DNA of 63,273 nt, filler included, from Stramenopiles sp. TOSAG23-6 (GCA_900128565.1; 11 parts of 11 records of this genome joined end to end with filler, not necessarily neighbours in it), one strand, 5' to 3'. Positions 5,210 to 62,181 are shown, counted from the whole stretch's first letter. Made by a program: numbers and translations. The notes: generated by a model not told the origin, from the letters alone.

Positions 5210-6248
5210 CTAATAAAATCCACCATCTTCACCATCCCAACCATCCTCTCCATCTTCGCCATCTTCATCTGATTCCTCACTATTAGAACTGTCACCATTG
5301 TCTTCTAAATCTGTATCCTCTTCTGGATCTATTCTCAAACCAAATGAAGAATATTTATCCGGTGGAGAAATTTTTATCAGTTCAATATCAAATACTAGAG
5401 TTGCATTCGGTGGAATTTTGGGGGGTAGACCTATATCGCCATATCCTGACTCGGGTGGGCACGTCACAATGCAAACATTGTGAAAAATATGTCAAATCCG
5501 AGATTTGTCAGGTACGAAATTTAAAATTTGTAAAAAAAATTGAAAATAATGATCAAAACGTACAATGCTGACCTTTACTCATTCGAGGCAAGCATTCTTC
5601 AAACCCACGTATTACTTGTCCAACGCCCACTTTAAATTCCATTGCCTTCCTTTTCCATCGCGTATCAAAAATCATAGTCTTGTTTTCAAGCATACACTTA
5701 AAATGAACTCTAACCATGCTCCCTTTTTTAGGAAAATCTACATTATTTCCTTCAAATACAGTCTCCATCAATGATAGTAAAGGTAAAAGTTCTTCTTCTT
5801 CAGATTCTGTTTCGCTTAAGTAATCGCTATTGTCCTCGCCGTCTGAGAAATCATCCTCCCCTCCATCTTCGCCAACAGAGTCTTCACCTTCATCACCTGA
5901 CTCATAAAAATCGTCATAATCGTCAGCATTTAATTTGGAATCTAGGGTATCTGTTATAGGTAAACTTTTATCGTCGAGTAAAACTGTCTGGGTTGCCCCT
6001 GTATTTTCTATATTGTTATCTATTTCCGTTTGTATGTTCAGTGATTTAGGTTCTGGCAAATATTCACTGAATTCACCCGGCTTTGGTTCAATGTTATCTA
6101 TTTCCGTTTGTATATTCAGTGCTTTAGGTTCTGGCAAATATTCATTGACTACAGTTTCTGTGTTAGGATCTGGGGATATTGTACTTTGGTCCAATATCGT
6201 TGGCGGTGATAATTCAGTGGCAACTGAATTATTTGCTTCATCTCCCAT
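5210..6248 (-). CDS. FKBP-type peptidyl-prolyl isomerase with acidic flanks; exons 6248-5564 and 5472-5210
   Basis: [36 protein letters not shown] and [24 protein letters not shown]. The join MSKGQHCIVTCPP has the same length as FKBP12 MSVGQRAKLTISP. Confidence 0.9.
5473..5563 (-). other. Family non-canonical intron (GT..TT, 91 nt)
   Basis: catt|GTACGTTTT..TACCTGAC..CACAATGTTT|gcatt; removal restores the FKBP domain. Confidence 0.85.
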
Positions 6249-6491
6249 ATTAAATAAAACACACACAACTATACTACGAGTAGTCTTAGGCAATTATCAA
6301 TGATTTTACGGTTACATTTCGGATTTACAAATCAAATCAAATGTATACGTAGGCTAAGGATTTTTTTTTGTTAAAAGCGAAAGGTACATGACACATTATG
6401 ACAAATGAGTAATTTGACTAAATATAAGCACTGTTCACGAAAATTGTACATGAGAATCCTACATCGTGTTTTAGATTATAGTTTGTCATAA

Positions 6492-6617
6492 TTTGTTTAT
6501 TTAGTTATCATATTGAAAAAAGCATTTTATTATTTTGTTTATTTAGTTATCATATTGAAAAAGGCATTTTATTATTTTGTTTATTTAGTTATCATATTGA
6601 AAAAGGCATTTTATTAT
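6492..6617. repeat. Tandem repeat, 3 x 42 bp, downstream of the kinase stop codon
   Basis: Unit tttgtttatttagttatcatattgaaaaa(a/g)gcattttattat. Confidence 0.9.
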
Positions 6618-6644
6618 GCATGTGATTTGAACCATGGTTAAAAT

Positions 6645-8298
6645 TTATTCTTCTTTGCGATTCGTGATCTTGCCTATATTAGGATTAGATAAAGCAGCGC
6701 GTAGCTCCAAAAGTCCAATTCGTTTCTTCTTTTTTTGTACACGAAATGCAGAACTTTTAATATTTCCTCTGGATTTTATGAAGTTTTCCTCATTTTTTTC
6801 TCTTCTAATAATAATATATTTTGATTTTTTTGCAGTCTTTGAAGTGTTTGATGCTTTCTGGGGATTTATACAATGAACTTTTACCTTCCCTTCAGTAGGA
6901 GAATTTGTACTTTTCTGTATTTTGTTCCATATTTGCTGAGTGCTTTCTACATTTGCTTTAGTAATAGATTTTACTGGAACTTTTATTTTGTTTGCTGTTT
7001 TTGGAATATTCGATGCCAATATCGGATACTTTTTCAGTGAGATTCTGTGATCACTCTGCTTTTGAATGACTTTGTATTTATTTTGTACAGACTGCTTTGA
7101 TTCTTTTTCAGACAAAAAAATATGCTGCTGAAGGAAAGCGTTCTTCTCATTACTATTTATCTCGCGTTTTCTTTGGTTATTTTTGTCTTTGCAATTATTT
7201 TGATCAACTGCATAACCTACAATATTTTTCTCTGATCTATTTCTATCTTTTTTATTGTTTTCCTTTCGAACTGCTTTAAGTGCTAGGTAAAACGCAGCTG
7301 TCATAGCATTATGATGGCAATCTAAGAGGGATGAAATGACCAAATGACGATTAAAACCAAAACTTTCGACCATTTGTAGTACTTGAAGCGTAATAGATTT
7401 GCCAAACGTTTCAGAAATAGAAGATATTCCACCTGTTCTACTATTAAATGATTCGTTTGTAAATTTACTAGGAAGCCATCTAGGAGGTGAACTCGAACGA
7501 TTATCTCCCGGAAAGTTGTGAATTTCTAATTTTGATTTACGTGTAGCATTAGTATTGTTCTTCAAATTGCACAACAAAATAGATTTAGACTTTGAAGACT
7601 TTGAAGACTTTCCATACTCATGACCATATCGTGTTTGTTTGAACCACGAATGCGCTAAGCAATCTTGAAGTGTTGCGCGGCGTCGAGGATTAATTGTCAT
7701 CATACAATGAATAAGATTCTGCACAGATACGGAGAGATATCCGGGCATAGATACTCGACCTTGTAAGATTTTCTTGAAGAGAAGTTTTTCTGTCTTTTGT
7801 GCAAATGGTAGATGTCCTGTAAGCATTGTAAACAAAGCAACACCAAGAGACCAAACATCTGAGGGTATTGGTCTATACGGTCGTCTTTGAACAATTTCAG
7901 GTGACATATACGCTGGTGTTCCACAATGATCATTACACATGAATGTATTATTTTGTCTCGGAGGAGTTTTGATGGCTAATCCAAAGTCAGTAAGTTTTAT
8001 TACTATATTGGGACGCAAAGAAGAACATATTGATGCTGAGATGTTTTGTTGTTTTTGCATAGGTTGAATGTCTACAAGCATGTTTTCTAATTTTATATCT
8101 CTATGAGCAATGCCAAGCGAATGCATATATTCCACAGCTTCGAATAAGGGTTTTGCTAGTTGACGCACATCTGCTTCAGAAATAACTTGATGGCGAATAT
8201 AGTTGGATAAGTTACCACCGTTTGCAAACTCCATGACAATATGAAACTTATTTTGCCCCTCTCGTTTTTGCAAGGATGCTCCAGGGAAAGCTTCATAT
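6645..8298 (-). CDS. CAMK-group Ser/Thr kinase (MARK/AMPK-like, with a UBA-like segment), 5'-truncated
   Basis: HRDIKLEN, DFG, CGTPAYMSPE, DVWSLGV; UBA-like MVESFGFNRHLVISSLLDCHHNAMTAAFYL. The exon starts after a family intron (..AATACTT|a tat gaa, giving LYEAF). Confidence 0.9.
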
Positions 8299-8366
8299 AA
8301 GTATTGTAAAAAAATATTTCAAAAAAAAATTCGTTAGGTACGAAATTTCGTATGAAAAAAAAATTA
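8299..8366 (-). other. 3' half of a family intron at the contig end (ends TAC-TT)
   Basis: CATACGAAATTTCGTACCTAAC..GAAATATTTTTTTACAATACTT on the minus strand. Confidence 0.8.
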
Positions 8367-8466: not shown

Positions 8467-8524
8467 TTTCGTACGAAATTTTGTACCTAACGATTTTTTT
8501 TTCAAATATTTTTCCAAAATACTT

Positions 8525-10044
8525 ATCATGGGGGAGTTTTGAATAGACATGCCTATGATAGTTTAATGTCTAAACTAAATGTCAATGATGATGATTCTAA
8601 TGATTCTAATGATAATGATTATAATGATAATGATAATGATTATAATCATAATGATAATGATTATAATGATAATGATTATAATCATAATGATTATAATGAT
8701 AATGATGATGATTATAATCATAATGCTGATAATTCTAATGCTGATGATTCTAATGATAATGATTATAATCATAATGCTGATGATTATAATGATCATTCTG
8801 ATAATTCTAATGCTAATGATTATAATCATTATGCTCATGATTCTAATGCTGATGATTATAATCATAATGATAATGATTATAATGCTAATGATTATAATGA
8901 TCATTCTAATGATAATTTAACAATTACTAATAATTATCGAGATAATTCTAATGATGCTAGATTCTTGACCAAAAGAAAAACACATCGTCCATATTCAAGT
9001 AACGTAACGAATGAATATAATTCATTCCATAATAATAATAATAATGATAATAATAATGATAATAATAATAATAATAATAATAATGATAAACGGAGTTCGG
9101 AATTTTGTTCCGATTTCGTGTCGACGTGTGATAAGTTAGAAGGATTTAGAGATAATAATAATAGATTTGAACCTTCAACACAATTTCGTGATGATTTGGT
9201 TGATATATTTGAATCTCCTTCGGATAGTGTCAGTTATACCAAAAATACTGAGAAAAAAAATATGCAAGTCTCATATAGAAAAAATGTACATCTCCAACGA
9301 AGGGAAGAATGTTTTCATCATGAATTTCAAATTTACGTTTTTTTCATACGCTATTTTGTACCTAACGATTATTTTTTTGAAATATTTTTGGACATTACTT
9401 GAATGCGGTGGATTTATTTTTCAAGTAAGTGATAAAACAATGGAACGAACCTCGTATAATTTCAAAACATTTTCGTGTCCTTGCAGTGTGTACGGGTATG
9501 TTTTATTTTTTTTCAAATTCGAGTTTTTTTTTCGTACGAAATTTTGTACCTAACGAAGTTTTTTTGAAATATTTTTCCAAAATACGGGGTACAATACATT
9601 GAAAAGGGAACACCATTATTTGTATATAATGTACGCAAACGTTATATTTCAGGACCTTTTATAGCCAGTTCAGGACCTATTAGAGCCACCTTAGATTCAA
9701 AACAACGTGTAATTGTATGTTCTCATTATGAATTTCAAATTTATTTTTTTTTTCATACGAAATTTTGTACCTAACAAACTTTTTATTTTTGTTTTTTCAC
9801 AATAATACATGTAAAATGGGATGAATGTAATTGGTTTCCCCCAGTATATAAAGTAGTCGGATACAATGTGATTCAAACAGGAATTTTACGTTCGGAAGAT
9901 TTTGAGGAGTTATTTCATCATATTTATCAACATAAAAGAAAGTTGAAGAAAAAAAAACGAAAGCATAAAAAACAAAAAAAGAGGAGTAAAAAACGAGCAA
10001 AATTTACATCTCTTGGCTCAACAACTTTCGCTTGGGGCAGATAA
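8525..10044 (+). CDS. Asn/Asp-rich protein with a DCD (development and cell death)-like domain and basic tail; 5'-truncated; exons 8525-9306, 9401-9495, 9588-9714, 9811-10044
   Basis: The spliced product reads ECGGFIFQVSDKTMER..VYGVQYIEKGTPLFVYNVRKRYISGPFIASS, resembling the DCD pattern GG(Y/F)IF..T..E and LPLFLYN..L.G.FEA. Confidence 0.65.
8578..8915 (+). repeat. Degenerate trinucleotide (AAT/GAT/TAT/CAT) coding microsatellite
   Basis: Encodes an N/D/Y/H-rich tract. Confidence 0.9.
9307..9400 (+). other. Family non-canonical intron (GA..TT, 94 nt)
   Basis: gaa|GAATGTTTTCATCATG..TACCTAAC..CATTACTT|gaatgc; GAATG direct repeat; in-frame join. Confidence 0.75.
9496..9587 (+). other. Family non-canonical intron (GT..GG, 92 nt)
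   Basis: tacgg|GTATGTTTT..CCAAAATACGG|ggta; TACGGG direct repeat; join gives VYGVQYIEKG. Confidence 0.85.
9715..9810 (+). other. Family non-canonical intron (GT..AT, 96 nt)
   Basis: att|GTATGTTC..TACCTAAC..AATACAT|gta aaa tgg; the last exon is open to TAA at 10042-10044. Confidence 0.8.
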
Positions 10045-10218: not shown

Positions 10219-13200
10219 TTATCGAATTGTTTGTTTTTTTAATGCCTCTTTATATTGGAACTCGCGTGCATTCAGTGCTGGAGCTAATGTACGTACAAAC
10301 GTGGTTGACGTTGAACCCAATTTTCTTTTTGATTTTTTATCTTTTACTTCAGAATCGGCTGAATTTGGATTCTTCTTGAAGGTGTTATTTACTGCAATTG
10401 TTGTTCCAAACTTTCTTTTTGATGGAAGAAGAGGTTCTGATATTTTGTTGTTGACTAATTTTTTGGTACGATTTTTTTCTCTACGACGATGAAGCATAGC
10501 TTCCCGGACTGAGATCTTTGATTTATCTTTATCTTTGGTTTGAACAGAAGCTTCACTATTCTTTACGCAAATATTGACATCATCAGTTTTTAAATTTTCG
10601 ATTTCATTTACTTTCATACTTTCTTTTTCTTTTGCAAGTATATTTTCTAGACGGTGAATCAAATCATCTCTTCTACCACTGACAGTTCCACCTTTTTCTC
10701 GAAGTGCATCTTTCAACTTTGCACATGTATTGTAAAAAAAATTAAATTCGAAATTGGTTAGGTACAAATTTTCGTACGAAAAATAAATAAATTTGAAATT
10801 CATCATGAAAACGTACATGTCACAGATTTATCAGATTTATCAATACTTCCATCAGATAACCTTTTCAGATTTTGAATCCATTCATTAATACCATTACCAT
10901 CTTTCGTAGAAGGTATAGCTACGTGATTTCTAGTTTGATTATTATCGGAAAGAGATGATGTTCCTAATGAACTATGAAAATTTGATAGACCTTTTCTTTT
11001 TAAGCGACTTGCTAGATCGAGTGAGGTGTCGATATCAACATCCGATGAAGAAGAAAAGTCATCAGTGACATTTGCAGTGCTACCATATGCACCATGTGAA
11101 CTTCTTGTGCCCGCGCTTCCTCTTCTTCGTCTTCGAACTTTACCACCATCAAAGTCGCTGTCATCGTCACAAGCATCATCACCCGTTTCAGGATCATATT
11201 CACTTACATCACCTTCTATCTCACTCCAATCCATATCAGAACCAGAGTCATCCTCCAATTCTGAAAATGAATTTCTCTTTTCTTTTTGATCAGATGAACG
11301 ATTACGTACAGTAACTCTATTTGCGCGACCGAGAGAACCTGTAGATTTTGATGATAGCCTCGGTCTCTTACTAGGAATAGTGTCGTTTGATTGGCGGCGT
11401 TTTGATTGATTGGTTTTATCATCCTTATCAATATTTTCTAGATCCGATGTCTTACGTTTGTGCCCTCGTTTTCTTTTTTGTCTTATTTTGTAAATATTAC
11501 GCATTTTTCTCTGTAATATGAGCTTTGCTCTTTCCAATTTTCGTCTCTCGCGTTCGACGGCTCGTACTCGCGACGCTTCTTCTAGATCTGCACTTACTGC
11601 ATTAACTTGAGCTGAAACTGCAGTTTGAAACAAAAACTTTAATGCTTGCTGAGTGTGACGTACAGTGCGACTCACTGGTCCCCAACGGGAAGACAACATC
11701 GCATTACTTTTGCGGTCATCGAGTTCTAGGATTTGAGATTGAAGACTAGTAATCTTTATCTGTAGACCTTCTTTAGCATCCCGCAATTTTTGCAAGCGTT
11801 CTGTAGCTTTTTTCTTTTCCTCCTGAGCTTGAGTAAACAATGCAGCTTCATCAAATTCAGAAGAAACATTATCTTTATTTGCATTAGTAAGATCTCGCGC
11901 TTTGCTCAATTCGATGCGGCGTTTGCCTAATGATAATTCAGCACGCTGCAAAGCACCTTGTGCCGACGCTATTTGCAATGAAATTTCTTTGCGTCTTTCA
12001 GTCGCAGCATTTAGTCTTGGACGAAGTTGCTTTCCAGCAACTTCAGCAGATAGCATTTTGGATAAGTGTTCTTGTACGCCATTTGGTCCAGAAATATTAA
12101 TTTTTCGTTTTGTATTTGCTTGTCTTTGTCGGGCTTGCTTTGCATTAACTTGCATTTCATGAACCTTTCGGAGACGTTTTCTCGTTGCTGCAGCTTCCGC
12201 GGTCTTTTGACGCAATGCTGCAGTATTCTTACTTTGTTGGCGTTCCAACTTTGCTACTTTGTGACTTTGCTCTCGACCTTGTTTTTGTAATTGTTTCAGC
12301 CGAGTTTCACGAGCCTTAGATTCTTCTCGATGACGTCGAGCAATTTCTTTCTGTTTACGAATGAGTTGAACACGCTGACGTTTCAATGCTTCAATTTGCT
12401 CTCGTGATTTTAAGGCTGATGCTGCCTCTTTTTCTTTACGTCGTAATAATTTTTGTTGTGTCTCAGCTTTATTTTTTACTGTTGTTAACTTCTTTTCGAG
12501 AGCCGCTAGCTGTTGCTTGTAACGACAACGAAGTTGTTTTTGCTTAACTTCTTGTTTATCAGACAACTTTGTGAGTTTTTCATGTAATTTTTTTTTTTGT
12601 TCTGTCAAAGTTGATACATCTTTTTGTAGTGATTTCATAGACGCAACAAGCGCTGCTCGAGTACGTTTTTCTTCAGCAGTTTTTTTAGTTTTATTATCTA
12701 AAGTTTGTTTACCCTTTGATGTGTTGCTGATAAAACCGGAATTGTTTGTTTTATTAATCTTTGCTGCTTCTTTTTGTTTTAGAGCAAGAGTTTCAGTGAG
12801 AACTTTCAACTGTTCAGCTATTGTTTTTTGTTCTTTTTCGTGTAATTCATTTGCTTTCCGACGTTCTTCGCGAGCATTTTCACTTTCTTCATTTTCATCG
12901 TATATAATATCTTCACATTCGCCATTTCCTTCGTTGCTTTTCATTTGGCCGATAGAATCTGGACCATTAAAATCTCCTCTATCAGAGCAAAATGATAACT
13001 TCCAACGAAGTAATTCGAGTTCGGCCTGCATTTCATCGATTTGTGCGGCCGTTTTATTCGTTTTGAATGTACCATTATTTTGTAAAAGATGCTTCAGTTC
13101 TGTATTTTCACGTTTTGCATCAGATAAAAGTGATGCTAGATTTTTATTTTCTTCTAAAGCTTGTGATAGAATATGTATTTTGGAAAAATATTTCACAAAA

Positions 13201-14575
13201 AAAAATCGTTAGGTACAAAATTTCGTACGAAAAATAAATCCGAAATTGAAAAAAAATAAAACATACATAATCACTTTCATCAGACGTTGAAGATCCTGTG
13301 ATTCCTTCTTTATTTCGTGCTCTTGTTTTCACTAATAGCCGCTGTAAAGTTTGTACCTGTGTCCGTAGACGCATTACCTCTGCTGACTCAGCATCGCAGT
13401 TTTGAACTGTTTTATTTTGAATATTTCGGGCACGATTAGCATATCGTAAACAATTAATCGTTTCATCAAAGTTACTGTCCGCAGGTGATATACATGCAAT
13501 CATAAGGGTACGACTATTACCTCCGAGTGAGGACTGTAAAAGTCTAGTGAGTTTAGAGTCTCTATACGGTACATGTATTTTGGGAAAATATGGTCACAAA
13601 AAAAAATCGTTAAATTTTCATAGCAAAAAAAAAGTAAATTTGAAATTGAAGTGAATGTTGAAAACAAACATGAACAGATTGGCGTTTCTTTTCATCACCA
13701 AGTACTGAAATAACATTGCCAAGTGCAAGAAGTCCTGAATTTATAGCAATTCCTTCATGGAGTCTTTTACCCTCGGCCCCAGTGCGTTTAGAACGTTCAC
13801 TCCCAGCAAGATCGACAAGCCGTAATGTAGATCTGCGATAACCAGTATCTCCACTACTATTACTTTCAGTAGTAGCAGCACATTCAATAGTGATATTGAA
13901 TACGGAATGACTACGAGAAGACTGTGCATTCATTTTAGTTCCACCTGTGGCTCTTGCCGTCGCTCCTTGACGAAGGCACGCAGCCATGTCTTGAAGTGTT
14001 GCAACTTTTTCTTCATGCAGACCTGCCACAAAAACAGTTCCAGTGGCGTCTTCTCGAAGTGCTAAAGAATCCCCGGTTGATTTAAGTAAATCGCGTACTT
14101 CATCTCTATATAGTTCTAAGTAAGAGCATGTCATTGTTATCAAAGGTGGTGATGATTCATCTTGTTTAGCGTTTTCCTCAGCAGCTCGAGAGTATAGATA
14201 TTCCATAACTCGAGGAATTACTCCAGCATCTTTACCCAAGGTTGCAGAATCATTTCTACCAGAAGATTCAAATGAAGTTCCCATTGTATGCGTTTTACCG
14301 GAACCAGTTTGACCATATGCAAATACAGTGGCATTGAAACCATCGAAGCAACCTGCGAGAATGGGTTTTACACATTGATCAAACACAGTTGCTTGGGTAG
14401 ACGTTTCAGGTAGTAACACATGGTCGAAAGTAAACTTTTTTTTAGCGCCCAGTAACAGAGCTGGTTCATTTGGAACTCCCTCTACACACAATTGTGCCCC
14501 TTCGGTGAGCTCATGTTCAAGAAGCGGGCGCACGCGCACAGCTACACGAACAGAAGCTTGATCCGACATTGTCAT
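10219..14575 (-). CDS. Kinesin-4 (chromokinesin/KIF4-like) with a C-terminal SAP domain; exons 14575-13670, 13572-13267, 13172-10817, 10724-10219
   Basis: [32 protein letters not shown] and [16 protein letters not shown]. Splicing restores [39 protein letters not shown]. Long coiled coil; SAP-like [28 protein letters not shown]. Confidence 0.92.
10725..10816 (-). other. Family non-canonical intron (GT..AT, 92 nt)
   Basis: acat|GTACGTTTT..AATACAT|gtgca; ACATGT direct repeat; restores the SAP domain. Confidence 0.85.
13173..13266 (-). other. Family non-canonical intron (GT..AT, 94 nt)
   Basis: tat|GTATGTTTT..CCAAAATACAT|att cta; joins two kinesin ORFs in frame. Confidence 0.88.
13573..13669 (-). 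other. Family non-canonical intron (GT..AT, 97 nt) inside the kinesin motor
   Basis: cat|GTTTGTTTT..CCCAAAATACAT|gta ccg tat aga gac restores the conserved HVPYRDS. No AG-ending register keeps this motif. Confidence 0.93.
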
Positions 14576-14940: not shown

Positions 14941-16673
14941 ATGACGGTGGAAGATAATCCATGTGTGGTGTATGGAGCCCGTTCAGCTATCGTGGCGTTT
15001 TGGATCACGTTAAATTCAGAAGCTTCCAAAATAGACACCACGAAACTTCTCGAATTACTCGAAACTGAGGATATTGCTCCGGTCTTTGAACATTCATTTA
15101 GTTTGAAGGAAGTTTCTTTTGAAAGAAATGGTAAACAATTCACAAAGGTTTCGGGTTTCATACATTTTCAAGCGTTCAACCGTCTACAAGTCTGCCAAAC
15201 TGCTTTAGATATATTACCAGGTTTAGCAACTCTAATACATGGATGCGAAAGATTTGAAGTAGAATCGGTTTTCCCCAGTCGATCAGGCACTCGTGATAAG
15301 GAACCAATTCATACTATGGTCAGAAATATTCCAAAGAATGATCGCGAGGCAATGAAGAAATTGAAAAAGAGTATGGTGAAGCAAATTTTTCAAGTAGTTT
15401 TTGGCCCTAATTCGAATTCAATTGGGTACATGCTGAAACTTGCGTCATATATTGCAACACTTAATAATGATGATGTTTCTCTCATGTTGAAGTTGTATGA
15501 AAAAAAAAATACCTCGACTCGAATCAACGGATCAACTGACGAAAGTACGTTTACCTTCTTTTTATACCTTTTTTTTGTAACTAACAAACATGATGAATTT
15601 TGAATTTATTTTTTGCTATTATTTTTATATTTGTACCATACCCAAGCTAACTATTGTTTTTACTAAAAAAAATATTTTTCTCAAATATATGTTGCTGGAG
15701 AGAATTTGTTGGTAATTTCCTCTCATCCAGAGGTAATCTATTATTAGAAAAGGCAAGACAAGTTGATAGAAATGACACAATTAATGCATGTTTAATTTTT
15801 TTCAAATTCCGTTTTTTTTTGTAAGAAATTTTGTACCTAACGATTTGGTTTTGAAATATTTTTCCAAAATACATGCATTAGTAGGCGAAATTGTCAAACC
15901 AGCTGGATGCTCTACAGTTCGCGAGCAGTATATTGCCGGAGTGTTTGATGAACATACAGCCCTGTCTCATTATGGTGTGATGGTGTCTTGGCCTTGTTTC
16001 TGTTGTGAAACAAAGCAAAACAGTTCTGTACAAAATGATACATTTGAAGAAGGTCCATCTGCCAAGCGTCAGAAAACTGATGAAACTGATGATACATCGA
16101 TCAAAAAAGATGATACATCCATCAAAAAAGATAAAGGTTCTGTTACTAATGATGAAAATGGTAAATGTGAGGTTTGCAATCTTGTAGATAGTTTCGATAA
16201 TTTTGGTGAAAATATTAAAAACTTTTTCGAAAAAAAATTCTCTGCGTATAGAGTCAAAGTGAAAAATATTACAATGTGTTACAATAGTATGACAGCCATG
16301 GTGTATTTTGAGGATTGTACGTTTTCATCATGAATGTATTAATTTAATTTTTTTTATAGTTGATTTGTACCTAACAAAAATTAAAAAAAATATATCTCCA
16401 AACAATTTATGTTGTCCAGCATTTCAAAGGTTGAAAATTCGTGGTACTCCTGAATTTATATACACTCCTTCAGTAACTGCTCAAGCTGTCAGTCGTTTAG
16501 TACTTGTCGATCCAGAGATTATAGAGGAAAAACTTCACGATTGTATTACAAATTCGATAAAAAACAAAAAAAAGCAACCTGACGATGATGATGATGATGA
16601 TGATGAGATGAAACAAACGAAGTCAATCGATGTTGATGACCTTGGAATTGAGTTTGACACTAGTCGAATAGAT
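14941..16673 (+). CDS. Hypothetical protein, 3'-truncated; exons 14941-15544, 15691-15785, 15875-16316, 16411-16673
   Basis: Four segments form one open frame after removing family introns; no recognised domain; start codon uncertain. Confidence 0.6.
15545..15690 (+). other. Degenerate family intron (GT..AT, 146 nt)
   Basis: a|GTACGTTT..GCTAAC..CTCAAATATAT|gt tgc; in-frame join. Confidence 0.7.
15786..15874 (+). other. Family non-canonical intron (GC..AT, 89 nt)
   Basis: aat|GCATGTTT..AAAATACAT|gcatta; ATGCAT direct repeat. Confidence 0.8.
16317..16410 (+). other. Family non-canonical intron (GT..AT, 94 nt)
   Basis: t|GTACGTTTTCATCATG..TACCTAAC..CAATTTAT|gt tgt; in-frame join. Confidence 0.75.
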
Positions 16674-16892: not shown

Positions 16893-19116
16893 CGCGTCAA
16901 CAAACTTGTTACAGTTAGACCTCTTAATAGTCGATATAGTGGGGAAATTGGCGACGTTGTCATTGGTCGTATATCAGAAGTTGGTGCTAAACGTTGGAAG
17001 GTTGATGTGAATAGTTATCAAGACGCTGTTTTGATGTTATCGTCTGTAATTCTTCCTGGTGGTCAGCAAAGAAGGCGCACATATGAAGATCAGCTTCAAA
17101 TGCGTGACGTTTTCGTCGAAGGTGAACTTTTATCTGTACGTTACATGATATACAAAAATAACTACATGTCTCTAACATACGCGGTTTCATTTGCCAGAAG
17201 ATTTCATGTGGCTTTTGGTTATTTATTCCCGCTACAATGCTATCACGGTGATACAGTTTGTAACACGTGTCTAGCGGCACTCGTATTGGATCAATCAACG
17301 CCTTCTTATTTTTTATTGCACATGTCATGAATATCAAATCAGGGCACGTGGGATTACATCCATTGCAAATATGCTATAGGACCATCTGTATTTGTGTTTT
17401 TATTATTTTTATTTGTTTTCTTCTGTATCGGGATTACACCCAGCCGTGTTGCGACTGATCCTGTGCCGTACACCAACTCCGTAATCCTAAAGTATTGTGG
17501 TTCTTGTTTATACGCGGTTATATATTTTGTCCCCTGCATTGCCCTTACATACTATGTACTGCTGGCGATTCTTGTGGATAAATTATTTTAATTGCAAAGT
17601 ATAACAACCCTTTATGAATAATAGAATTTCACCCGTCGAACGGTGGAGTAAAGTATTTCGTGTTAAATAGAATGGATGATCGTTTGTATGATATGTTATT
17701 ATTATTTCAGACTTGATCTCCATTATATTAATGGCACAAATAATGGATACTTTTTTTTCTGTTAAACTACATATCCTTTACATCATATACTTTCATGGGT
17801 TACTCTTAACGAAGTGTCTTCTATTGTTGTTATCTAATTATTTCTACACGAAATAACTGGTGATAATAATCATGAGAAGTTCACATGAGATCAAACATAA
17901 CCCTATAATATTAACATTACACTACGTAGATGCTTCGGCTCCGAATGTAATATAAGTTAGTTCACATTGTATAATAATATTAGGTTGAAGTCCTCTGTTC
18001 CCATGACTATTTTACCTTCAATTTTATTGTTCTAGAATACATATAAATATTAACACCCTTGTAAAAATAGCTGCCTTAAAAGTTGGCTTGAATGTTTTTC
18101 GTACTATCAAGTCCGTTCCCGGTAGCAAGAATAACCCGTGAGATTACTTCTTTGAACGGAAGTGCTCCGTTGTGGTGTACTCGGCTATGTCCTTATCTGC
18201 TTCACCAAGATAAGTGTACGAACGAATAAAACAGAACGGCAAATCATGAATGTATGTTTTATTTTTTTTCAATTTCGAATTTATTTTTCGTACGAAATTT
18301 TGTAAATTTTGTACCTAACAAAAATTAATTTTTTTTTTGAAATATTTTTTCACAGTACATTGGTATTAGCAGAAGATTGTTCAGCAATGTTTGGATTTGA
18401 TCACTGTTTTTGCTTTAAGTGGTTTGCTTAATATTTATCATATCTTTTGCAGAAGAGAGATTGTTTATTTTGTATTGAGGTTTTCTTTAACATTCCTCAA
18501 AAGTAATTTTACGCAAAATACTCACATTATATTCTAGTTTGTATAATCCATCTTAACAAAATAGGCTGAAGTACAGAACTTTTTTGCTGATGGTGCTATA
18601 TCTCTACACACAAGATCATTAAAATATGGTAAATTAGAAAATGGCCAATTATTAACTGTCCCGACGTCTCTTATTAAACGATTGAAAAAACATAATGTAA
18701 AGTTGCCGGGTATTGATGTTCAAGTTACCATCGGTTGCAATGGTTATATTTGGATTACAAAAGTTAACAAATTAGATGCTAGTGGTGATGGAGGTGCTGG
18801 TGGAGGCGCAGCACATAGACGTATATTCACTGCGGAGGATACTGAAGCAGCAAGGAAAGAACATTCTGAGCTGATTATAGACCCTGAATGCAGAGTACGA
18901 ATATCGCGTGTCGCAAATGCTGTTACTGTATTGAGTCGTGGAATGGCAGAAATAAACATTTCAAGCTTGATGTGTGTATATACTGCATCGTTGAAATTTA
19001 ATATGGAACCTAAGAAAATGCTAGAAGGTAAAAACGTGAAAAAACTTCTTTTGCATGTGCATAACAACAGAGACCTCTCGATAATTGAAACTGGCGATAA
19101 AATGAATATTACGTGA
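16893..19116 (+). CDS. RRP4: Exosome complex component RRP4, 5'-truncated; exons 16893-17135 and 18565-19116
   Basis: RVNKLVTVRPLNSRYSGEIGDVVIGRI..RWKVDVN..LSSVILPGG..RRR..EGELLS|AEVQNFFADGAISLHTRSLKYGKL..IGCNGYIWI. Confidence 0.93.
17136..18564 (+). other. Canonical GT-AG intron, 1429 nt
   Basis: tct|GTACGT...CATCTTAACAAAATAG|gct gaa; the phase-0 join restores LSAEVQ. Confidence 0.88.
18252..18360 (+). mobile_element. Family element nested inside the canonical RRP4 intron
   Basis: aat|GTATGTTTTATTTTTTTTC..TTCGTACGAAATTTTG..TACCTAAC..CACAGTACAT|tg; the flanks are non-coding. Confidence 0.85.
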
Positions 19117-41756: not shown

Positions 41757-41921
41757 GTACATTAATTATCATTCATTTCAATTTCGGATTTTTTTTTGTA
41801 CCAAATTTCGTACCTAACAAANNNNNNNNNNNNNNNNNNNNNNNNNNNNNNNNNNNNNNNNNNNNTTAATTAATTAANNNNNNNNNNNNNNNNNNNNNNN
41901 NNNNNNNNNNNNNNNNNNNNN

Positions 41922-43198: not shown

Positions 43199-43591
43199 GT
43201 CTTACTTCCATATATAATCTACACAAAACCGTCAAATATCCAACCTTGTGTATGCACTTTTAGATGCTGGACTTTATTATTAAAGGTGGTTAAGGCGTAC
43301 TAGTCAAAAAAAAAGAGATCAAAAAAGCTAAAAAAATATTCCAATTTACAATTTAAAAATTGGTCGCAAAATCTCATCAAGGGGTGAAATTGGTCAGAGA
43401 TTCGATTGTAAAATTTTTGTTTTGACGTTTTTCATTTTGTTTTTTCATTTTGTACGAAAATTTTATACTTAAAGCGACACACGACAGTTTGTTTGACTCG
43501 GGAGGAAGAGAAGAAAATCTTTTCTTGGAGAGAGAGAATACAATACTGATCTTTTGTTTTAAACTTTTAGTCCTCTCTCTACATGTAAACA

Positions 43592-45858: not shown

Positions 45859-45909
45859 GTATGTTTTTTTTGACTATGAAAAATTTTGTACCCAACAAAA
45901 AATCAAAAA

Positions 45910-45940
<31 letters not shown>

Positions 45941-46150
45941 CTTTGTTTTTTTTTTTCTATGAAATTTTTTGCCTAACAAATTTTTTTTTTTAAATATTTT
46001 NNNNNNNNNNNNNNNNNNNNNNNNNNNNNNNNNNNNNNNNNNNNNNNNNNNNNNNNNNNNNNNNNNNNNNNNNNNNNNNNNNNNNNNNNNAAAATATTTA
46101 AAAAAAAAAATTTGTTAGGCAAAAAATTTCATAGAAAAAAAAAAACAAAG

Positions 46151-46181
<31 letters not shown>

Positions 46182-49100
46182 TTTTTGATTTTTTGTTGGG
46201 TACAAAATTTTTCATAGTCAAAAAAAACATACAACTAGTACTAGTACTATCATCATTTTCAGAATGTTCAATTATTTTTTCGCCAAATATATATGTGGAT
46301 ATATCGTAATATAAATCAGAAAAAAATTCAGTGACGTCATCTTTCAATTTAAACCCGCTGGTAATTGAATTTTCATTATCTTCATCAATAAATCCTTGAA
46401 ATGCCTCAAAGGAATCTTCAACAACATTTATTTTTGATACATATGTCAAAATAATTTTGAAATTTTGTTAGGTATAGAATTCTCTACCAAAAAAAAAAAA
46501 AAAAAAAAAAAATTGATTTTTTTTTTTTGAAAATTTGTTAGGTATGAAATTTCGTATGAAAAAAAAAATTTAATTTTTTTTTGGATATTCAATGATACAA
46601 TCTAACATACATTATGTAAATCTTCACCTAATTCATTTAATTCCCCTTGTTGATGCGGAATAGTAGGAAAAGGAGTTACATTTTTTGTGTCATCATTTGT
46701 TTCAATTTTATTAGGGTTAGGGTTTTGAATATTTTTTGTTTCTTTTGTTTCTTTTGTTTCTTTTATTTCTCTGACTTCATTAGGGTTAGGGTTTCTTATA
46801 TTTTTTTCATTGAACATTTCACGTTTTTGTTTTTCGTTATATTTTGTTTCATCTTTGTTTTGAAAATTGTTTCTTGTATCATATAATCTACATGATTTCG
46901 TGTGGAGCACACTAGGGTTAGGGTTAAAGTTCGAAATTGTTGACATTTTTTTATTCATTCGATTCATATTTCTGTTGTGACACTTTAATATTCTATTGTT
47001 TAGAAAAAAAATATCAAAAAGAACAAATAACAGAATGCATAATAATATACATGCTTCCCAACGTAAATCGGTTACTAATAGTATACTAGCACCAAGTATA
47101 TATATTGTGAAAAATATTTTTTTTTTTTTTTTTTTTTAATATTGTTTTGTTAGGTATGAAATTTCGTATGAAAACNAAAAAAAAAAAAAAAAAACATTGT
47201 ATTTTAAATTCGAAATTCGAAATGACATACGTGCGGTGGCCATAAAAAACTGAAACGTGTTGTTTGTAATATATTTGGTGTTGATGACGTCATTTTTTTA
47301 CTCATCAAAATGAAATATTTCGTGTATTTTTCTTGTTCATCATTTTTTTTTCGATTAGGGTTAGGGGTAACATAAAATTTCTTTGAGATATTTTGAATTT
47401 CGAATTTACTTTTCTGAAATATTTTCACAACATTTTCAAATGGATGAGAGATAATATTAATGTACTGAATGTTATAGACAAGATTCAAATTATAAGCAAA
47501 AAAAGATATAATATTACCTCTATATGCATTATAAAACTGTGTCGAATGTTCAGGAAAAAAAAATGAATTGTTCTTGATTTCGTGATTAGTGTTCTCTTCA
47601 TCAAAAAAAACAGTTTTTTCTAATTTTTCATCATTATTATCATTATTATCATTATTGTACAGTAATAGATGACTAATAACCATTATGACAAGAGTAAGTT
47701 GTGTACAGAAAAATAATCGACGATAACTTTTGCTTTTTTTTATGCCCTTAACCCTAGCATGACTTGTACCAATATTTTTTTTAACGTTAGTGCGGATTTG
47801 TGAATCATCTTTTACCGTTGCTGTTGTAGAGGTAGGATTACTCATTCCATTATTTTTCCCTTTTTGAATAGTATTTATTGTAGACGTGAAATATCGACCA
47901 TTGTTTATACTTGGCCGTTGTTTTGATTTTGTATTGTATTTTTGAGTGTTACGTTGACGGAGGGTACTCACTTGATTTTTTGAAGAATTTGAAATATTTG
48001 ATTGACCCGACGAAATAAAAGAGTTATAACTAGCGTGAATATTAGATGCACTTGATGAAGTCTCTGAGAATTTACTCTTCTTGAACCTGTCGGATGGATC
48101 ACGTAAAGTAGATGCAGATGTTGCACGTTTTGTTTCAGATTTTTGTAGGTGTAGTTTTGGCTGTTTTTGAATGGGACGGAAAGACTTATTCTCCTGTTGC
48201 TGTTGAGTATTTCTCCAATTTAAAAGATTTTCATCGCTATCGAAGAATGCTTCATCATTACTACTTACAGAGTCTTCTTCACCTTTGTGTTGTTTTTTTA
48301 TTTGAAAGCCGAAGTTTTCTTTCGTTTGTTTTTTTTCGTCAGAGTCTGAACGCGGTGAATTCTCATTGAAAAAATTTGGTTTCAGCTGTTTTGAAGAACT
48401 TAGCAGATCCTTTGCTACTCCAATAATAAAAAAGAATAACGGAATACACATCAAGTATAGTACGGTTTTCCATAGTATTTGCAATACATAGGATAACATT
48501 GTTTACATGTAGAGAGAGGACTAAAAGTTTAAAACAAAAGATCAGTATTGTATTCTCTCTCTCCAAGAAAAGATTTTCTTCTCTTCCTCCCGAGTCAAAC
48601 AAACTGTCGTGTGTCGCTTTAAGTATAAAATTTTCGTACAAAATGAAAAAACAAAATGAAAAACGTCAAAACAAAAATTTTACAATCGAATCTCTGACCA
48701 ATTTCACCCCTTGATGAGATTTTGCGACCAATTTTTAAATTGTAAATTGGAATATTTTTTTAGCTTTTTTGATCTCTTTTTTTTTGACTAGTACGCCTTA
48801 ACCACCTTTAATAATAAAGTCCAGCATCTAAAAGTGCATACACAAGGTTGGATATTTGACGGTTTTGTGTAGATTATATATGGAAGTAAGACATGCCATC
48901 TATATTGGACAGTTCGTTCAGTTTTTCACTTCCTCACGTAAAGTCACGCCAGTATTTTTCCATAGTCTGTGACACGAATCAGGATATAAACGACGGTGTT
49001 TTTTTAATTGGGTCTCTGGATAATGGAATTCATGTATTTTCTGCTACAACTGGGATGAAGATACATGACATAAAGACTCAGTTTAGATATTTATATTGTG

Positions 49101-50269
49101 TCGAATATGCAAAAGTATATGATTGCATTATTACTGTAGAAAGTTGTACTCAATTCCAGATGGACCGTCCAATGCCTCTAGAAAGCAGAAACAATGAGTT
49201 CTATATTTGTGTCTATTCAAATTGGCGTGGTCCTCTAGATAACATACCATACGATAGCATATCTATATATGCATATCCCTTGTCTTATCCATTATACAAA
49301 GATAAAATTCATGATGAAACATGGATGCATAAATGTAGTAACAAACCAGTTTTTGGGGACAACAACAACAACAACAAGCAAACTTGGATGAATCCTAACC
49401 CTAATTTGTTTACAAAAAAGACGAATTTGAAGAATTATGTACCCAATTTCATTCTTTCCCTTCATGAAAATGATACAACAATGTGTTATATAAGCATAGG
49501 CTATCACCATAGGATATATTTACTTGAATTACTTTGTACAAATCAAAATCAGATGTCTCAAAATTCTGAAAAACACAAAAATCATAAAAAATATGAAAAA
49601 GACAAAACTTGTAAAACATTAGCTATTTTGAATATACCGAATACATATGATGACTATATTTGTCATGTTACNTATTNTACTTTTTNGTAATACTATTTTG
49701 TATTCATTAGGTACAAAAATAGGTAGAAATATTTTTTCAGGTAGTCGTATTTTTATGCTTCAGCTTCCAAAGAAATCTTTAGGTATCAATATTCGTACGA
49801 ATATTAAAAAAAATAAAAAAAATAAAACGTTTCAATGGAATGATCATAAGGAAAATTGTATTAATGACGAAACAGAAATGAATATTTTTTTTTATGAAGA
49901 TGGAAATCAACAAAAAACACAAAAAACACGAAATGTAAAAAATAATCCTAGCACATCACTCAATGTAAAACATCAAAATTCTTTTGACGATCTAACAGGT
50001 TGGTATGAAGATATTCACATAAACAATAATAATAATAATAATAATAGTAATAATAATAGTAATAATAATACATCTAATACATCTGATAATTTGTCATTCA
50101 ATTCTAGCCCTAATCCTAGAAAAATTGAAATTCAACTATTTAGTGATCATCAACAGAATACACATAAAANNNNNNNNNNNNNNNNNNNNNNNNNNNNNNN
50201 NNNNNNNNNNNNNTTAATTAATTAANNNNNNNNNNNNNNNNNNNNNNNNNNNNNNNNNNNNNNNNNNNN

Positions 50270-58502: not shown

Positions 58503-59825
58503 NNNNNNNNNNNNNNNNNNNNNNNNNNNNNNNNNNNNNNNNNNNNTTAATTAATTAANNNNNNNNNNNNNNNNNNNNNNNNNNNNNNNNNNNNNNNNNN
58601 NNTTTTCATCATGGTGGTGGAGGAGGGGGAGAGGAGGATGATGATGATTACCACTATCCTCCTCTGCAAGAACAGTGTCACACCATCTACAGTATAAAAT
58701 ACAAATTATTTTATACCTGGTGGTTTCAGGTAGTAATAAAGCTATTTTAGTATATTATAATAATAAAAAAACAAAGAAGAAGAAGAAACTCTTCTTTAAA
58801 AAAAAATAACAAACAACAGCAGGGGGAATGATAAATTCACGCAAGATTTTTTCGAATTATTTTTTTAATTATTTATTATTACATACGAGGACTGTAGTAT
58901 TTATTTATTAAAAAAAGTAATCAGACCTATTATTATACGACTAGTAATATATCATAGTCTAATAATAGATACGTCATTTTTTGTTTTCATTGTTCTGTGT
59001 TCTGTGTACTCCACTCCTTCTTCTTTCTTTCCTTCTTTCTTTCCTTCTTTCTGTAGTGGAGTATGATCATTACTCGTATTTGACTTAAAGTTGCATCTAC
59101 ACAGGTAGTAACTTTCTTTTAACTAGTCCTATAATTATTAAAAATTATAATACATAGGCGTAGTCTAGGAAGTGCGGTCAAGAACTGTAGTCTTTTATGT
59201 CATAGTCCTCCTTGAAAAAAACTAATAAATAAAAAGAGGAGTTTAAATTGATTTGACTTTGTGCCTTCTTATTTTGACTCTACCGGTACGTACCGTAAAT
59301 AGACTAATATAAGTGGACTAAGTATTTGAAGAGGAGAGAAAGAGAGGTGTACAGAGGATATTATACAATGTTTATACATATTATACGACGTACTGGTGGA
59401 GAGATAGATGGTGGGGATTGTATTATATTATTTAGACTACTAATAAATAATGATTCATCACACACAACCAAGCAAGACCGCATCATCGATCACATCTCAA
59501 CAACGAACAACAACAACAACAAACGAAATAAAAAAAATGATTTATTTCTTTTTTTTTTTTTATTATAGATCCTCGTATACTGTACCATATTGGTAGAAGT
59601 CTAGAGAAGAAGAAGACGATTAATAATAATTATATAATTTTTTTATTATTTAATTTTATTATTAATTATATACAGTATACTGTATTATTTTTTTANNNNN
59701 NNNNNNNNNNNNNNNNNNNNNNNNNNNNNNNNNNNNNNNTTAATTAATTAANNNNNNNNNNNNNNNNNNNNNNNNNNNNNNNNNNNNNNNNNNNNTTTTT
59801 TTTGAAAAAAAAAAAAAAAACATAC

Positions 59826-60803
59826 ATTTGGAACTCTACTTTAAAAGTATAATCACCTCGTCGAAATCTCTTGTCTGTTCCAGTAACTTTAATTAAAGCG
59901 ATATAGTCATATTGTTTGTCTATACTAGAATGAAACATTTCGTTCATTGTTTTAGTCCTGAAATTAGGATAAAGTGGTTCATTACCGATTTCTGGGTACA
60001 CGCGATTAAATTTACTTTGATAACTTTTGACGGCATGTATTTTGGAAAAATAATTTGAAAAAAAAATTTTAAAAAAATTGTTAGGTACAAAATTTACTAT
60101 AAAAAAAAATTCGATTTTTTTTTTACCGGAAAAAAAAAAAAAATAAAACATACATCTCTAAACTCTTCCAAGCCCCTTTTAAAAATTGGATTTTGGATAG
60201 TTCTTTGAAGAAATTCTTTCATCTCGTGTGGAGAGTGGATAATCCTTTGAAGATATACTTTCATTTTGTGTGGTGAATCGATTAAGATTATGTATTGTAA
60301 AACATATTTTACATTTGAAATATGTTAATAAAAAATTGTAATGCATGAAATTTGACACAAAGAAAATAAATTCGAAATTGAATTTTGGAATGAATGATGA
60401 AAACGTATTTAAAAGACGATGTCACAGTTTTCGCACTCACAATGTAAGGGTTATCATCTGCATTAAAGACCAAAACAAAATCTTCTCGAAGTCCATTTTC
60501 GACAGCGGCAAAACTCTGTACCACATCAAAGTAAACAACTTCTTCACTTTCAGCCTCAGGAGACACATTTATTTTGGGAAAATATTGTTAGGTACAAAAT
60601 TTCGTATGAAAAATAAATTCGATTTTTGTGTTAAAAAAAAAATAAAACATACATGGGGCCAAGTCTTAGTTAGTTGCACTCGCTTCCCAGCAGTTACTGA
60701 TAACTGCGATATCGGGTTTTCCAGAAAATTGTGATGCGGGTACATTGATCTGAGTTGCGACATAGGAATGTCGTGTCTTTTAACAGCGCCCCTGTACGGG
60801 TGA
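59826..60803 (-). CDS. Internal exons of a hypothetical gene (60803-60653, 60566-60409, 60289-60154, 60034-59826) separated by family introns
   Basis: Introns 60567-60652 (GT..AT), 60290-60408 (AT..AT) and 60035-60153 (GT..AT) give one open frame; partial copies sit at both contig ends. Confidence 0.7.
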
Positions 60804-61058
60804 ATGTATTTTGGAAAAATATTTTGGAAAAATATTCGTTAGGTACAAAATTTTTATAAAAAAATAAATTCGATTTTTTTGTAAAAAANNNNNNNNNNNN
60901 NNNNNNNNNNNNNNNNNNNNNNNNNNNNNNNNTTAATTAATTAANNNNNNNNNNNNNNNNNNNNNNNNNNNNNNNNNNNNNNNNNNNNTTCGTAATATCT
61001 GAATTTTTTCCTGCGAAAATTTGTTTATCAATCAATTGTTGAAAATATAAATGCAGGT

Positions 61059-61475
61059 TTGTATGATAAAGATTTTATGACGAGAACGAAAAGTACAACT
61101 GTAAAATTTGACACTAATGATGTGTTTGAAGGCTTATGTGACAAACGTGGTGATGTCGAATGTATGTTTTTTTTTTTTTTTTTTTTTTTTTTTTTNNNNN
61201 NNNNNNNNNNNNNNNNNNNNNNNNNNNNNNNNNNNNNNNNNNNNNNNNNTTTGTACCTAACAACTTATTTTTTTTTTTTGAAAAAAAATTTTGAAATATT
61301 TTTCCAAAATACATGTAGAAAAATTTTAGAGTTAATTTTACATGATGATTTTCAAATTCAAATTCAAAAAAAAACTGAAAAAATAAGATATATGTCGTTA
61401 GATGACAAAATATTTTGGATATGTAATTCAAGATTTATTCGAGATTTTCGTTATTTATGCACAAATTGTATGTAT

Positions 61476-61523
<48 letters not shown>

Positions 61524-61992
61524 GAAAATTTTTTTCCCAAAAAAAAAAAAAAAAAAAAAAAAATATTTTTTACATTTTATGTAATAAATGTAAACTATTG
61601 ATATTAGCAGCATCACAACTGGGTTGTAAAATTATTGAGCATTCAAAAACGATTGCAATTTTTACCGAATTTAGTCAATTTCTTACACTACATAATTGTA
61701 ATATGATTCGCCATGTATGTTTTCAGAATCAATTGTAAAAAAATGTAAAAAAATGTAAAAAAATGAAAATATTTTTACATCAATTTTAAATTTTAAAAAT
61801 TTTTTTTAAAAAATATTTCAAAAAAAAAAAAAAAAATTGTAGTAAATTTTGTACCTAACAAAAAAAAAATGAAAATATTGTCCAACAATTCTTTGGATGG
61901 TTCGTAATTTATTATCAGAGGATATTGTGGCTTATATTATCAAATGCATTGGTTGTTTCTCTAAAGAATCACAATTTGCTGAATTACGAAAT
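61059..61992 (+). CDS. Internal exons of a hypothetical gene separated by family introns 61162-61314, 61468-61580 and 61715-61893
   Basis: All three joins are in frame; the homopolymer tracts are expanded and one intron has an internal N gap. Confidence 0.55.
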
Positions 61993-62181
61993 GTACGTTT
62001 TTTTTTTTTGAATTTCAAAATTTTTTTTTTTTTTTTCATACGAAATTTTGTACCTAACAAATTTTTTTTAGATTTTTTTTTNNNNNNNNNNNNNNNNNNN
62101 NNNNNNNNNNNNNNNNNNNNNNNNNTTAATTAATTAANNNNNNNNNNNNNNNNNNNNNNNNNNNNNNNNNNNNNNNNNNNN

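Follow-up and report, generated by a model that had tools for sequence, protein, structure and literature searches.

The closest described counterparts of the sequences reported here are introners, known from Micromonas, Aureococcus, dinoflagellates, fungi and other groups as short, non-autonomous introns that occur in many near-identical copies in unrelated genes and are flanked by duplications, and whose loss together with one copy of the duplication restores the gene (PMC9860276 / bioRxiv 2022.06.06.494994; PMC12130899; the PMC sources are cited throughout for parts of their texts). We analysed a stretch of 63,273 nucleotides (nt) from Stramenopiles sp. TOSAG23-6 (GCA_900128565.1), the whole of which we call the window, and describe in it a family of inserts in protein-coding genes that resembles introners in these respects. 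Described introners are reported to have canonical splice sites, whereas in this family only 2-3 of ~28 3' ends carry an AG, and the duplication is 2 nt long and mostly AT. A preliminary description of the window had read the inserts as mostly GT..AT introns of a major-type spliceosome that works without AG. The observation is confirmed and this interpretation is partly supported by our data; the duplication of the target site, and hence the nature of the family as an introner or miniature inverted-repeat transposable element (MITE), was overlooked there.

Several other systems share single traits with the family. The introner elements of Amoebophrya are repeated introns with terminal inverted repeats, direct repeats of a few nucleotides over the borders and non-GT/AG ends, for which a MITE-like origin was proposed; they have no clear terminal signature and carry hairpin-forming inverted repeats of 8-20 nt (PMC7789003), whereas the present family keeps a yeast-like GTATGT and CTAAC, has no conserved structure and deviates at the 3' end only. 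In the animal Fritillaria borealis, a U2 spliceosome with a diverged U2AF is reported to handle 3'AC and 3'AT ends, and a connection with introner transposons that have weak sites is discussed; there, however, fewer than 10% of the introns are GT/AG and the 5' ends deviate too (PMC13326754), in contrast to the canonical 5' end of a single young repeat in our case. Together with the U2-type AT-AC introns (PMC1557818), the Fritillaria introns are exceptions to the premise of the preliminary description that U2 introns require a YAG. Non-canonical U12-type and U2-type AT-AC introns show the terminal pairs GT-AT, GT-GG, AT-AT and AT-AC, and some of them splice, but they occur rarely and singly, carry ATCC 5' boxes and have their branch site near the 3' end (PMC1557818), and are not a repeat family thousands strong. 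Euglenids and diplonemids have nonconventional and “intermediate” introns whose non-AG borders vary, which are suspected to derive from MITEs and which are often gained at new positions; these introns differ by stable pairing of their ends and by the lack of a U1-complementary 5' site (PMC6221363; PMC12621601), neither of which holds here. Unlike the internal eliminated sequences of ciliates, finally, the inserts are present in bulk DNA and have a strong sense bias.

We found no description of the family in the literature on introners, on non-canonical introns or on introns and splice sites of MAST-3 (a marine stramenopile group). In the main texts of papers on MAST genomes, whose supplements might bear on the question, the parts covered contain “intron” twice in the methods and neither “splice” nor “non-canonical” (PMC5778133), none of these words (PMC12614181), or no “intron” (PMC8163842). 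Large introner surveys rest on annotated, mostly canonical introns, and the 2025 survey dropped families with mainly non-canonical sites unless they were backed by RNA-seq (PMC12130899). If the splicing proposed below is true, introners extend to a non-AG form that annotation-based surveys would miss or discard.

A high-copy element family in unrelated genes

The elements share one layout, namely GTATGTTTT, a T-run, TTTCGTACGAAATTTTGTACCTAAC, a second T-run and CCAAAATAC, followed by two further bases. The consensus can be written as GTATGTTTTATTTTTTTTCAAATTCGAATTTATTTTTCGTACGAAATTTTGTACCTAACGA-T(n)-GAAATATTTTTCCAAAATAC, again with two bases after it, and another subfamily begins with GTACGTTTTCATCATGAATTTCAAATT. 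With ≤3 mismatches allowed, the core motif TTTCGTACGAAATTTTGTACCTAAC has 25 matches, whereas 100 shuffles give an expectation of 0; with ≤2 mismatches, the 3' motif TTTTCCAAAATAC has 27 matches, compared with a mean of 8.96. Searching the window with a profile of full copies gave 49 matches at E≤0.05 and 33 non-redundant matches at E≤1e-3, the latter count leaving out the end of contig 1 that is duplicated and, in the palindromic contig 6, the right arm. More diverged copies were recognised by alignment with homologues or by eye (30267-30362, ~32037-32133, ~16307-16393 and variants in contig 10), and with them the earlier figure of about 40 related inserts is borne out. The number of complete copies, previously given as 32, has to be lowered: ~24-26 copies, nearer 25, can be delimited.

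Pairwise identity among 21 copies (two of them with slightly wrong coordinates) has a median of 0.75 and ranges from 0.55 to 0.96. Measured as the element plus 2 nt, 19 copies are 86-109 nt long and one further copy has 119 nt. The hosts are unrelated genes, for example kinesin, FKBP, USP9X-like, FHA and phosphoesterase-family genes.

At the 5' end, the first six bases read GTATGT in 13 and GTACGT in five of 22 copies, and +5G and +6T of GTATGT are invariant in 19/19 aligned copies. Further inside, a branch-like motif GTACCTAAC lies ~35 nt from the element end; ACCTAAC occurs 31 times on the plus strand and nine times on the minus strand of the window, with a T-run after the motif. The dinucleotide that follows ...(A)TAC was recorded at 26 ends and is AT in 20, TT in three, GG in one and AG in one, the FKBP copy having TT at its frame-defined end; among the diverged copies there is one AG end and one GT end. 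This recount is close to the tally reported before (mostly AT, few TT, single GG and GT, two AG). In every copy the last base is U or G (AT, TT, GT, GG, AG), never A or C, and 13/19 copies have no in-frame AG acceptor from -8 to +24 nt of the element end. Of the traits of U2-type introns, the family thus has the GTRWGT-like 5' site with +5G and the CTRAY branch motif with a pyrimidine tract, and lacks the YAG 3' end.

The copies are strongly biased in orientation. A crude test with flanking open reading frames (ORFs) placed 28 of the 33 non-redundant copies sense to their host and two antisense, three having no long flanking ORF. By this test, 28/30 decidable copies are sense. One of the two “antisense” copies (31801) is sense by alignment with a homologue and the other (60570) is ambiguous.

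The family is also abundant outside the window, as the preliminary description had supposed from contigs that break inside copies. Such breaks are indeed frequent, since four of the seven long contigs (1, 2, 4, 5) have at least one end in a copy, and the depth in two DNA runs agrees with a high copy number genome-wide. In run X1, 11,638 of 119,919 contigs were placed on the 8.3-kb contig 2, 5,170 of these fitting two places, and the summed depth was 56,000-644,000 in element bins compared with 42-180 in unique bins. In the independent seawater DNA run X3 the corresponding values were 2,948-24,158 and 1.2-13. In both runs the elements thus stand at least 1000-fold above their flanks in depth. 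Thousands of copies per genome are a fair reading of these numbers. Contigs of X3 cross the unique diverged element at 13573-13669 and also span 10811-13199, and a core-motif scan of JGI metagenome contigs gave one contig, L001, with a copy AT/GTATGT...CACAATAC/AT and matching frames. Because X3 contigs run through elements and L001 holds a further copy, the elements are real DNA and not an artefact of assembly.

Removal of the element restores frames and homology

With the element and the next 2 nt taken out, at least 39 open codons stand on each side in matched phase in 17 of the 19 secure copies, against one third expected by chance; in the remaining two, 18252 and 33807, the flanking ORFs are too short for the frame test. 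With the element kept, a stop or a frameshift results in 18/19 copies, the exception being 41552.

Homology leads to the same junctions. Spliced in silico, the four exons of a kinesin gene become one ORF of 1394 codons with 43% identity to its relative P0242; the alignment is gapless at junctions 1 and 3 (SAP region) and has a 2-residue gap near junction 2, in a variable stretch beside ALEEN. The FKBP_C profile is colinear over its junction, with positions 5-59 in exon 1, positions 63-94 in exon 2 and exactly three residues between them, and three USP9X-like junctions are length-matched to P0243 (LKGN/AVDKMTE, LETH/VSGHDSELRR and, in a diverged copy, RRDA/F...). The restoration of kinesin HVPYRDS and of the FKBP and SAP junctions, as claimed before, is thus reproduced by the P0242 alignment and the FKBP_C profile. 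The public coding sequence (CDS) of the same kinesin, P0241 (10806-14575 (-), EukProt GSMAST32.ASY1.ANO1.439.1, 1061 aa), is mis-spliced with forced GT-AG: it reads SVHVYSKLT, loses PYRD, the DLAGSE segment and ALEEN, and runs into the third element to a stop, which truncates it before the SAP domain. These losses make the nearby canonical GT-AG alternative demonstrably worse. Protein catalogues of this lineage are probably wrong wherever the element sits, for which P0241 is an example.

The inserts are very probably introner-derived introns that are removed exactly, and frames and homology suggest that this removal takes place at the RNA level.

A side observation concerns the database ORF P0244 (82 aa), which begins with an element read in frame from an ATG made by AT+G; protein catalogues therefore hold element-derived pseudo-peptides of this lineage.

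Duplicated flanks and proposed mechanism

The dinucleotide behind ...ATAC is identical to the one in front of GT in 14 of 19 flank pairs (12 AT/AT, one GG/GG, one AG/AG), and both copies with GG or AG as 3' dinucleotide carry the identical dinucleotide before GT. This repetition points to a 2-nt target-site duplication. The termini of the element, GTAT(G)TTTT and AAAATAC, form a short, imperfect inverted repeat, and the combination of a target-site duplication with short inverted termini argues for an introner-like MITE family. Since restoring the gene takes the loss of the element and of one of the two duplicates, the intron would end in whatever dinucleotide the target was. In 9/25 copies a GT stands directly after the 3' AT, which suggests a preferred insertion target around AT/GT and makes the register ambiguity described below wider in those copies.

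We propose that a high-copy, non-autonomous introner element of the MITE type is a source of new spliceosomal introns in a stramenopile-like marine protist. The element GTATGT...ATAC would bring along its own 5' splice site (GTATGT/GTACGT), the branch motif GTACCTAAC and a U-tract, and its insertion would duplicate a 2-nt target, usually AT. The RNA would then lose the element together with one copy of the duplicated dinucleotide, whereby the pre-insertion sequence would come back exactly. The 5' cut would most likely fall at the G of GTATGT and the 3' cut 2 nt past ...ATAC, inside the duplicated target. In consequence, the intron would end in the duplicated dinucleotide (AT mostly; TT, GG, AG or GT), and its 3' site would be set by position and not by an AG. 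For this explanation as a whole, comprising introner origin, exact removal, the GT..NN register and the major spliceosome, we estimate a probability of roughly 0.5.

Register of the cuts

Where the flank dinucleotide is duplicated, the register of the cuts is ambiguous: in AT/AT copies, the registers AT..AC, TG..CA and GT..AT all yield the same mRNA, and none of them ends in AG. Of the earlier assignment as GT..AT introns, the intron-like behaviour stands (sense orientation, U1/U6-type 5' site, CTAAC, exact removal), whereas GT..AT itself is one of three equivalent registers in these copies. If the inserts are exactly removed introner-derived introns, the GT..NN register appears moderately favoured, because +5G and +6T never vary, which agrees with U1/U6 pairing in this register, because one donor variant is GC, and because the intron start is highly variable in the other register. 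In three pairs with AT on one flank only, the 5' flank differs (TT, TG, GT) and the 3' AT is kept; as these mismatched flanks vary on the 5' side only, they point weakly (n=3) in the same direction.

The other register would have the same mobile introns cut two bases leftward, as NN+GTATG...ATAC, which makes them mostly AT..AC introns. It gives the same mRNA as GT..AT in the 12 AT/AT copies, and it would account for a 3' ...AC that is commoner (24/26) than AT (20/26). U2-type and U12-type AT-AC introns are documented (PMC1557818), and A(+1)/C(-1) is known as a compensating pair (in part from the same source). However, the intron start would then vary among 22 copies, being AT in 14, TT in two, GT in two and AA, GG, TG and AG in one each, and in the three unequal pairs this would-be start is what has changed. 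The invariant G and T would fall at +7/+8, positions without a known role, and the GG and AG copies would become GG..AC and AG..AC introns. In addition, /ATGTATGT is unlike the consensus /ATAAGT or /ATATCC. We regard cutting in the AT..AC register as unlikely.

Type of spliceosome and structure-guided excision

Judged by its motifs, the GT..NN family is likely to be served by the major spliceosome. It is a more tentative proposal, held with less than even confidence, that the major-type spliceosome of an abundant uncultured marine stramenopile routinely ends splicing at a position-fixed non-AG 3' site, with the last base, almost always U or G, pairing with the +1 G or A (G-U, A-U, G-G) in place of the usual recognition of AG, and that a transposon has exploited this for thousands of AG-free introns; the pairing of the last intron U with the +1 G or A is speculation. 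If such splicing is true, there are thousands of near-identical introns with a textbook 5' site and branch point and no 3' AG. They would single out for study how the 3' site is located in the second catalytic step, the AT, TT, GG, GT and AG ends together with G or A at +1 forming a natural allelic series.

Minor-spliceosome (U12-like) introns spread by a transposon would offer a different explanation, in which lax last two bases account for the AT, GG, TT and AG ends and for the A or G at +1. RTATGTTTT and the U12 consensus RTATCCTTT are alike at 7/9 positions, and TTTTCC is present near the 3' end. The family, however, is without CC at +5/+6 (its 5' box is RTATGTTT, compared with RTATCCTT) and without a TCCTTAAC branch box, its branch motif lies ~35 nt from the 3' end compared with ~10-15 nt in U12 introns, and GTATGT with CTAAC is the classical U2/U6 pattern. 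With regard to the ends, the family displays GT..AT, GT..GG and AT..AT, and the non-canonical classes listed for U12-type introns include GT-AT (7), GT-GG (8) and AT-AT (12), of which GT-AT, like AT-AN, is reported as competent for U12 splicing (PMC1557818). The earlier claim of a major-type spliceosome that works without AG is backed by the motifs and by the 13/19 copies lacking an in-frame AG, and is qualified by the existence of these rare U12 classes. Overall we consider an assignment to the minor spliceosome improbable.

A non-spliceosomal, structure-guided RNA excision, as in the nonconventional introns with paired ends of euglenids and some diplonemids, was weighed as well. In single-sequence folds the ends can pair, (AU)GUAU with AUAC(AU), and non-canonical borders with short direct repeats are found in euglenid, diplonemid and Amoebophrya introns (PMC6221363; PMC12621601; PMC7789003). 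On the other hand, RNAalifold found 0 conserved pairs in 19 copies, the fold energies are no better than those of shuffles (z +0.28 to -1.8), and GTACGT copies retain ...ATAC, which leaves a C-A mismatch and no covariation. The conserved strong U1-type 5' site and the branch motif are, moreover, absent from nonconventional introns. Excision guided by structure thus seems scarcely credible for this family.

Points against the proposed mechanism and evidence from RNA

Several points weigh against spliceosomal GT..NN introns of introner origin. No empty site was found, the duplication being deduced from the flanks only. The inverted repeats at the termini have little length and do not match perfectly, and a transposase was not identified. 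The preponderance of 3' ...AC given above fits the AT..AC register. In three copies (31434, 40234 and one in contig 9), A replaces G at +1 with unchanged geometry, and an A at +1 blocks the second step in yeast-type U2 splicing. Finally, we know of no mechanism in a standard U2 spliceosome for choosing a 3' U or G without AG.

Data from RNA belong to the same side. The comparison used assembled contigs, not reads, and the repetitiveness of the element cores stops assemblies from passing them. Two elements could be traversed, and both are retained in seawater metatranscriptome contigs, in X6 at 13567-13800 (depth 3.25) and in X8 at 9240-9398 (depth 2.7), and neighbouring exon contigs in the RNA libraries have a similar depth of 2.5-6.2. 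No element-skipping joint was found among the joints listed, which were mostly repeat-induced. The two retained copies are the most degenerate ones, with GTTTGT and GAATGT as 5' sites, and the contigs could stem from pre-mRNA, from DNA carried over into the libraries or from inefficient splicing at weak 5' sites; they count mildly against splicing. Among transcript-derived ORFs over the kinesin junctions (102-aa exon query, proteins of 56-179 aa) there was no near-identical match, the best having 72-76% identity.

It follows the same line of evidence to suppose that the inserts are not removed from RNA at all and are either recent gene-breaking insertions or segments excised from the DNA of another nuclear form, like internal eliminated sequences. 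The retention of 2/2 assessable elements at exon-like depth, the database ORF P0244 that reads through an element in frame, and the 93-nt copy 41552 without a stop would agree with this. Yet there are ~40 insertions in otherwise intact conserved genes, and the sense orientation of 28/30 fits an RNA-level process only. In addition, 18/19 copies would truncate or shift the protein, and even copies that are old and diverged have kept their splice signals. Excision from DNA is further opposed by the bulk seawater DNA of X3, which carries the inserts, insert-free DNA not being the dominant form. We hold this reading, in either of its two versions, to be very improbable.

Catalogue of copies

The individual copies of these putative introner-derived introns are collected in Table 1. 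In the 1.09-kb contig at 59796-60888, the exons between the five copies are open in matched phases, as judged by eye.

Table 1. Copies of the element in the window. A slash marks the limits of the element or a protein junction.
Feature	Position	Strand	Remarks
Kinesin motor-domain copy, diverged	13573-13669	-	GTTTGT...AAAATAC+AT, 97 nt; CATGT repeat at both junctions, six equivalent registers, none with an AG end
Kinesin copy, consensus-like	13173-13266	-	AT/GTATGT...CCAAAATAC/AT, 94 nt; removal keeps ALEEN, common to P0242 and lost in P0241
Kinesin SAP-region copy	10725-10816	-	AT/GTACGT...CAATAC/AT, 92 nt; spliced product aligned to KSVTCAQLKACLRARG in P0242
FKBP copy, diverged	5473-5563	-	GTACGT...CACAATGTTTGCATT, 91 nt, GT..TT; GCATT repeat flanks
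GG copy	9496-9587	+	GG/GTATGT...AAAATAC/GG, GT..GG; duplicated dinucleotide GG
AG copy, FHA-domain gene	35381-35471	+	AG/GTATGT...AAAATAC/AG, canonical GT..AG; duplicated dinucleotide AG
Unequal-flank copy	9715-9810	+	TT before GT, AT after AC
Unequal-flank copy, USP9X-like gene	31162-31254	+	TG before GT, AT after AC; region not conserved in P0243
Unequal-flank copy	41552-41644	+	GT before GT, AT after AC; 93 nt, no stop in host frame, only copy capable of read-through
ATATGT-start copy	31434-31533	+	A at the G+1 position; frame-consistent as AT..AT; an in-frame GTTATG 6 nt further downstream would serve as well
Second ATATGT-start copy	40234-40328	+	Same AT..AT geometry; no in-frame GT alternative
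USP9X-like gene copy	31801-31893	+	AT/GTATGT...AAAGTAC/AT; LKGN/AVDKMTE vs LKGDIADRVSE of P0243, gapless
USP9X-like gene copy	32344-32437	+	AT/GTATGT...AAAATAC/AT; LETH/VSGHDSELRR vs IETHVEGHESSLRR of P0243
Old diverged copy	30267-30362 (+/- few nt)	+	End ...CACTACCAG, GT..AG, 96 nt
Phosphoesterase-family gene copy, consensus-like	40419-40511	+	
Copy directly upstream of the C-terminal part of the Phosphoesterase domain	41005-41096	+	
GC-donor copy	15786-15874	+	GCATGT, GC..AT; 6-nt ATGCAT repeat flanks
Consensus-like copy near gene end	33807-33907	+	Short downstream ORF
Copy with internal 16-nt duplication	18252-18360	+	Short flanking ORFs; may sit in an untranslated region
1.09-kb contig, five copies on one strand	59796-60888	-	Two cut by contig ends; 60035-60153; ATACGT-start ~60316-60408; 60567-60652
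3' half of copy at contig start	8466-8524	+	End ...AAAATAC/TT
5' part of copy at contig end	16674-16748	+	

Besides these copies, two fragments with the core and the branch part only lie at 39932-40093, in the interval that separates the phosphoesterase-family gene from a PX-domain ORF, and could be either decayed copies or introns of an untranslated region. Variants that are longer or degenerate and contain very long runs of T or A occur at 44867-45000, 45509-45660, 61440-61560 and 61700-61890, and one of them may end in ...GGTAG. The family is more varied than its 86-100 nt class would imply.

Gene content and assembly of the window

The window consists of 11 contigs, seven of ~8.3 kb and four of ~1.09 kb, with spacers of the form N44-TTAATTAATTAA-N44 between them. 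It is AT-rich (33% GC), eukaryotic and gene-dense, with long single-exon ORFs, and encodes two kinesins, a protein kinase, FKBP, PRP38, a UCH peptidase and EF-hand, FYVE/ankyrin, FHA and PX proteins. The only phosphatase-like match in the window is Pfam Phosphoesterase PF04185 at 41079-41765. The PRP38 ORF has 100% identity with a EukProt CDS whose label, GSMAST32.ASY1.ANO1.2720.1, in our own reading of it, suggests a MAST-3-type marine stramenopile. An origin from a diplonemid single-cell genome, a source in which non-canonical introns have been predicted, was weighed and given up in view of this identity. The PRP38 gene (37689-38984 (-)) has no introns; its product, a spliceosomal B-complex protein, is the sole splicing factor encoded here. 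Scans for Rfam families and tRNAs over the window returned no Rfam family, no tRNA gene and no small nuclear RNA of the U2 or U12 kind.

Canonical GTAAGT introns were considered as candidates and rejected: 22/22 GTAAGT sites stand in open coding frame or in a non-intronic context, and the candidate at 9425 lies inside an open exon frame. Outside the element family, no convincing conventional intron was recognised in the genes of the window, and nearly all introns of these 63 kb may derive from this single element. In the metagenome contig L001, the sequence ...CAAG/GTAAGTTTAGC... at 2380-2440 (-), downstream of the element, resembles a conventional 5' splice site.

Two contigs have unusual structures. 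Contig 6 (41922-50169) is a perfect palindrome, with 8248/8248 positions equal to its own reverse complement around the N-run 46001-46090, so that each feature there counts double unless one arm is dropped; it is most likely a chimera of whole-genome amplification or assembly. Contig 1 has a 200-nt terminal inverted duplication (1-200 and 8167-8366) that takes in half an element (its 3' part) together with the beginning of the protein-kinase exon, and this is probably an artefact of the same kind. The host gene of four elements, at 8523-9308, has no Pfam match and encodes an Asn/Asp-rich low-complexity protein of repeated “NDN/DSN” units.

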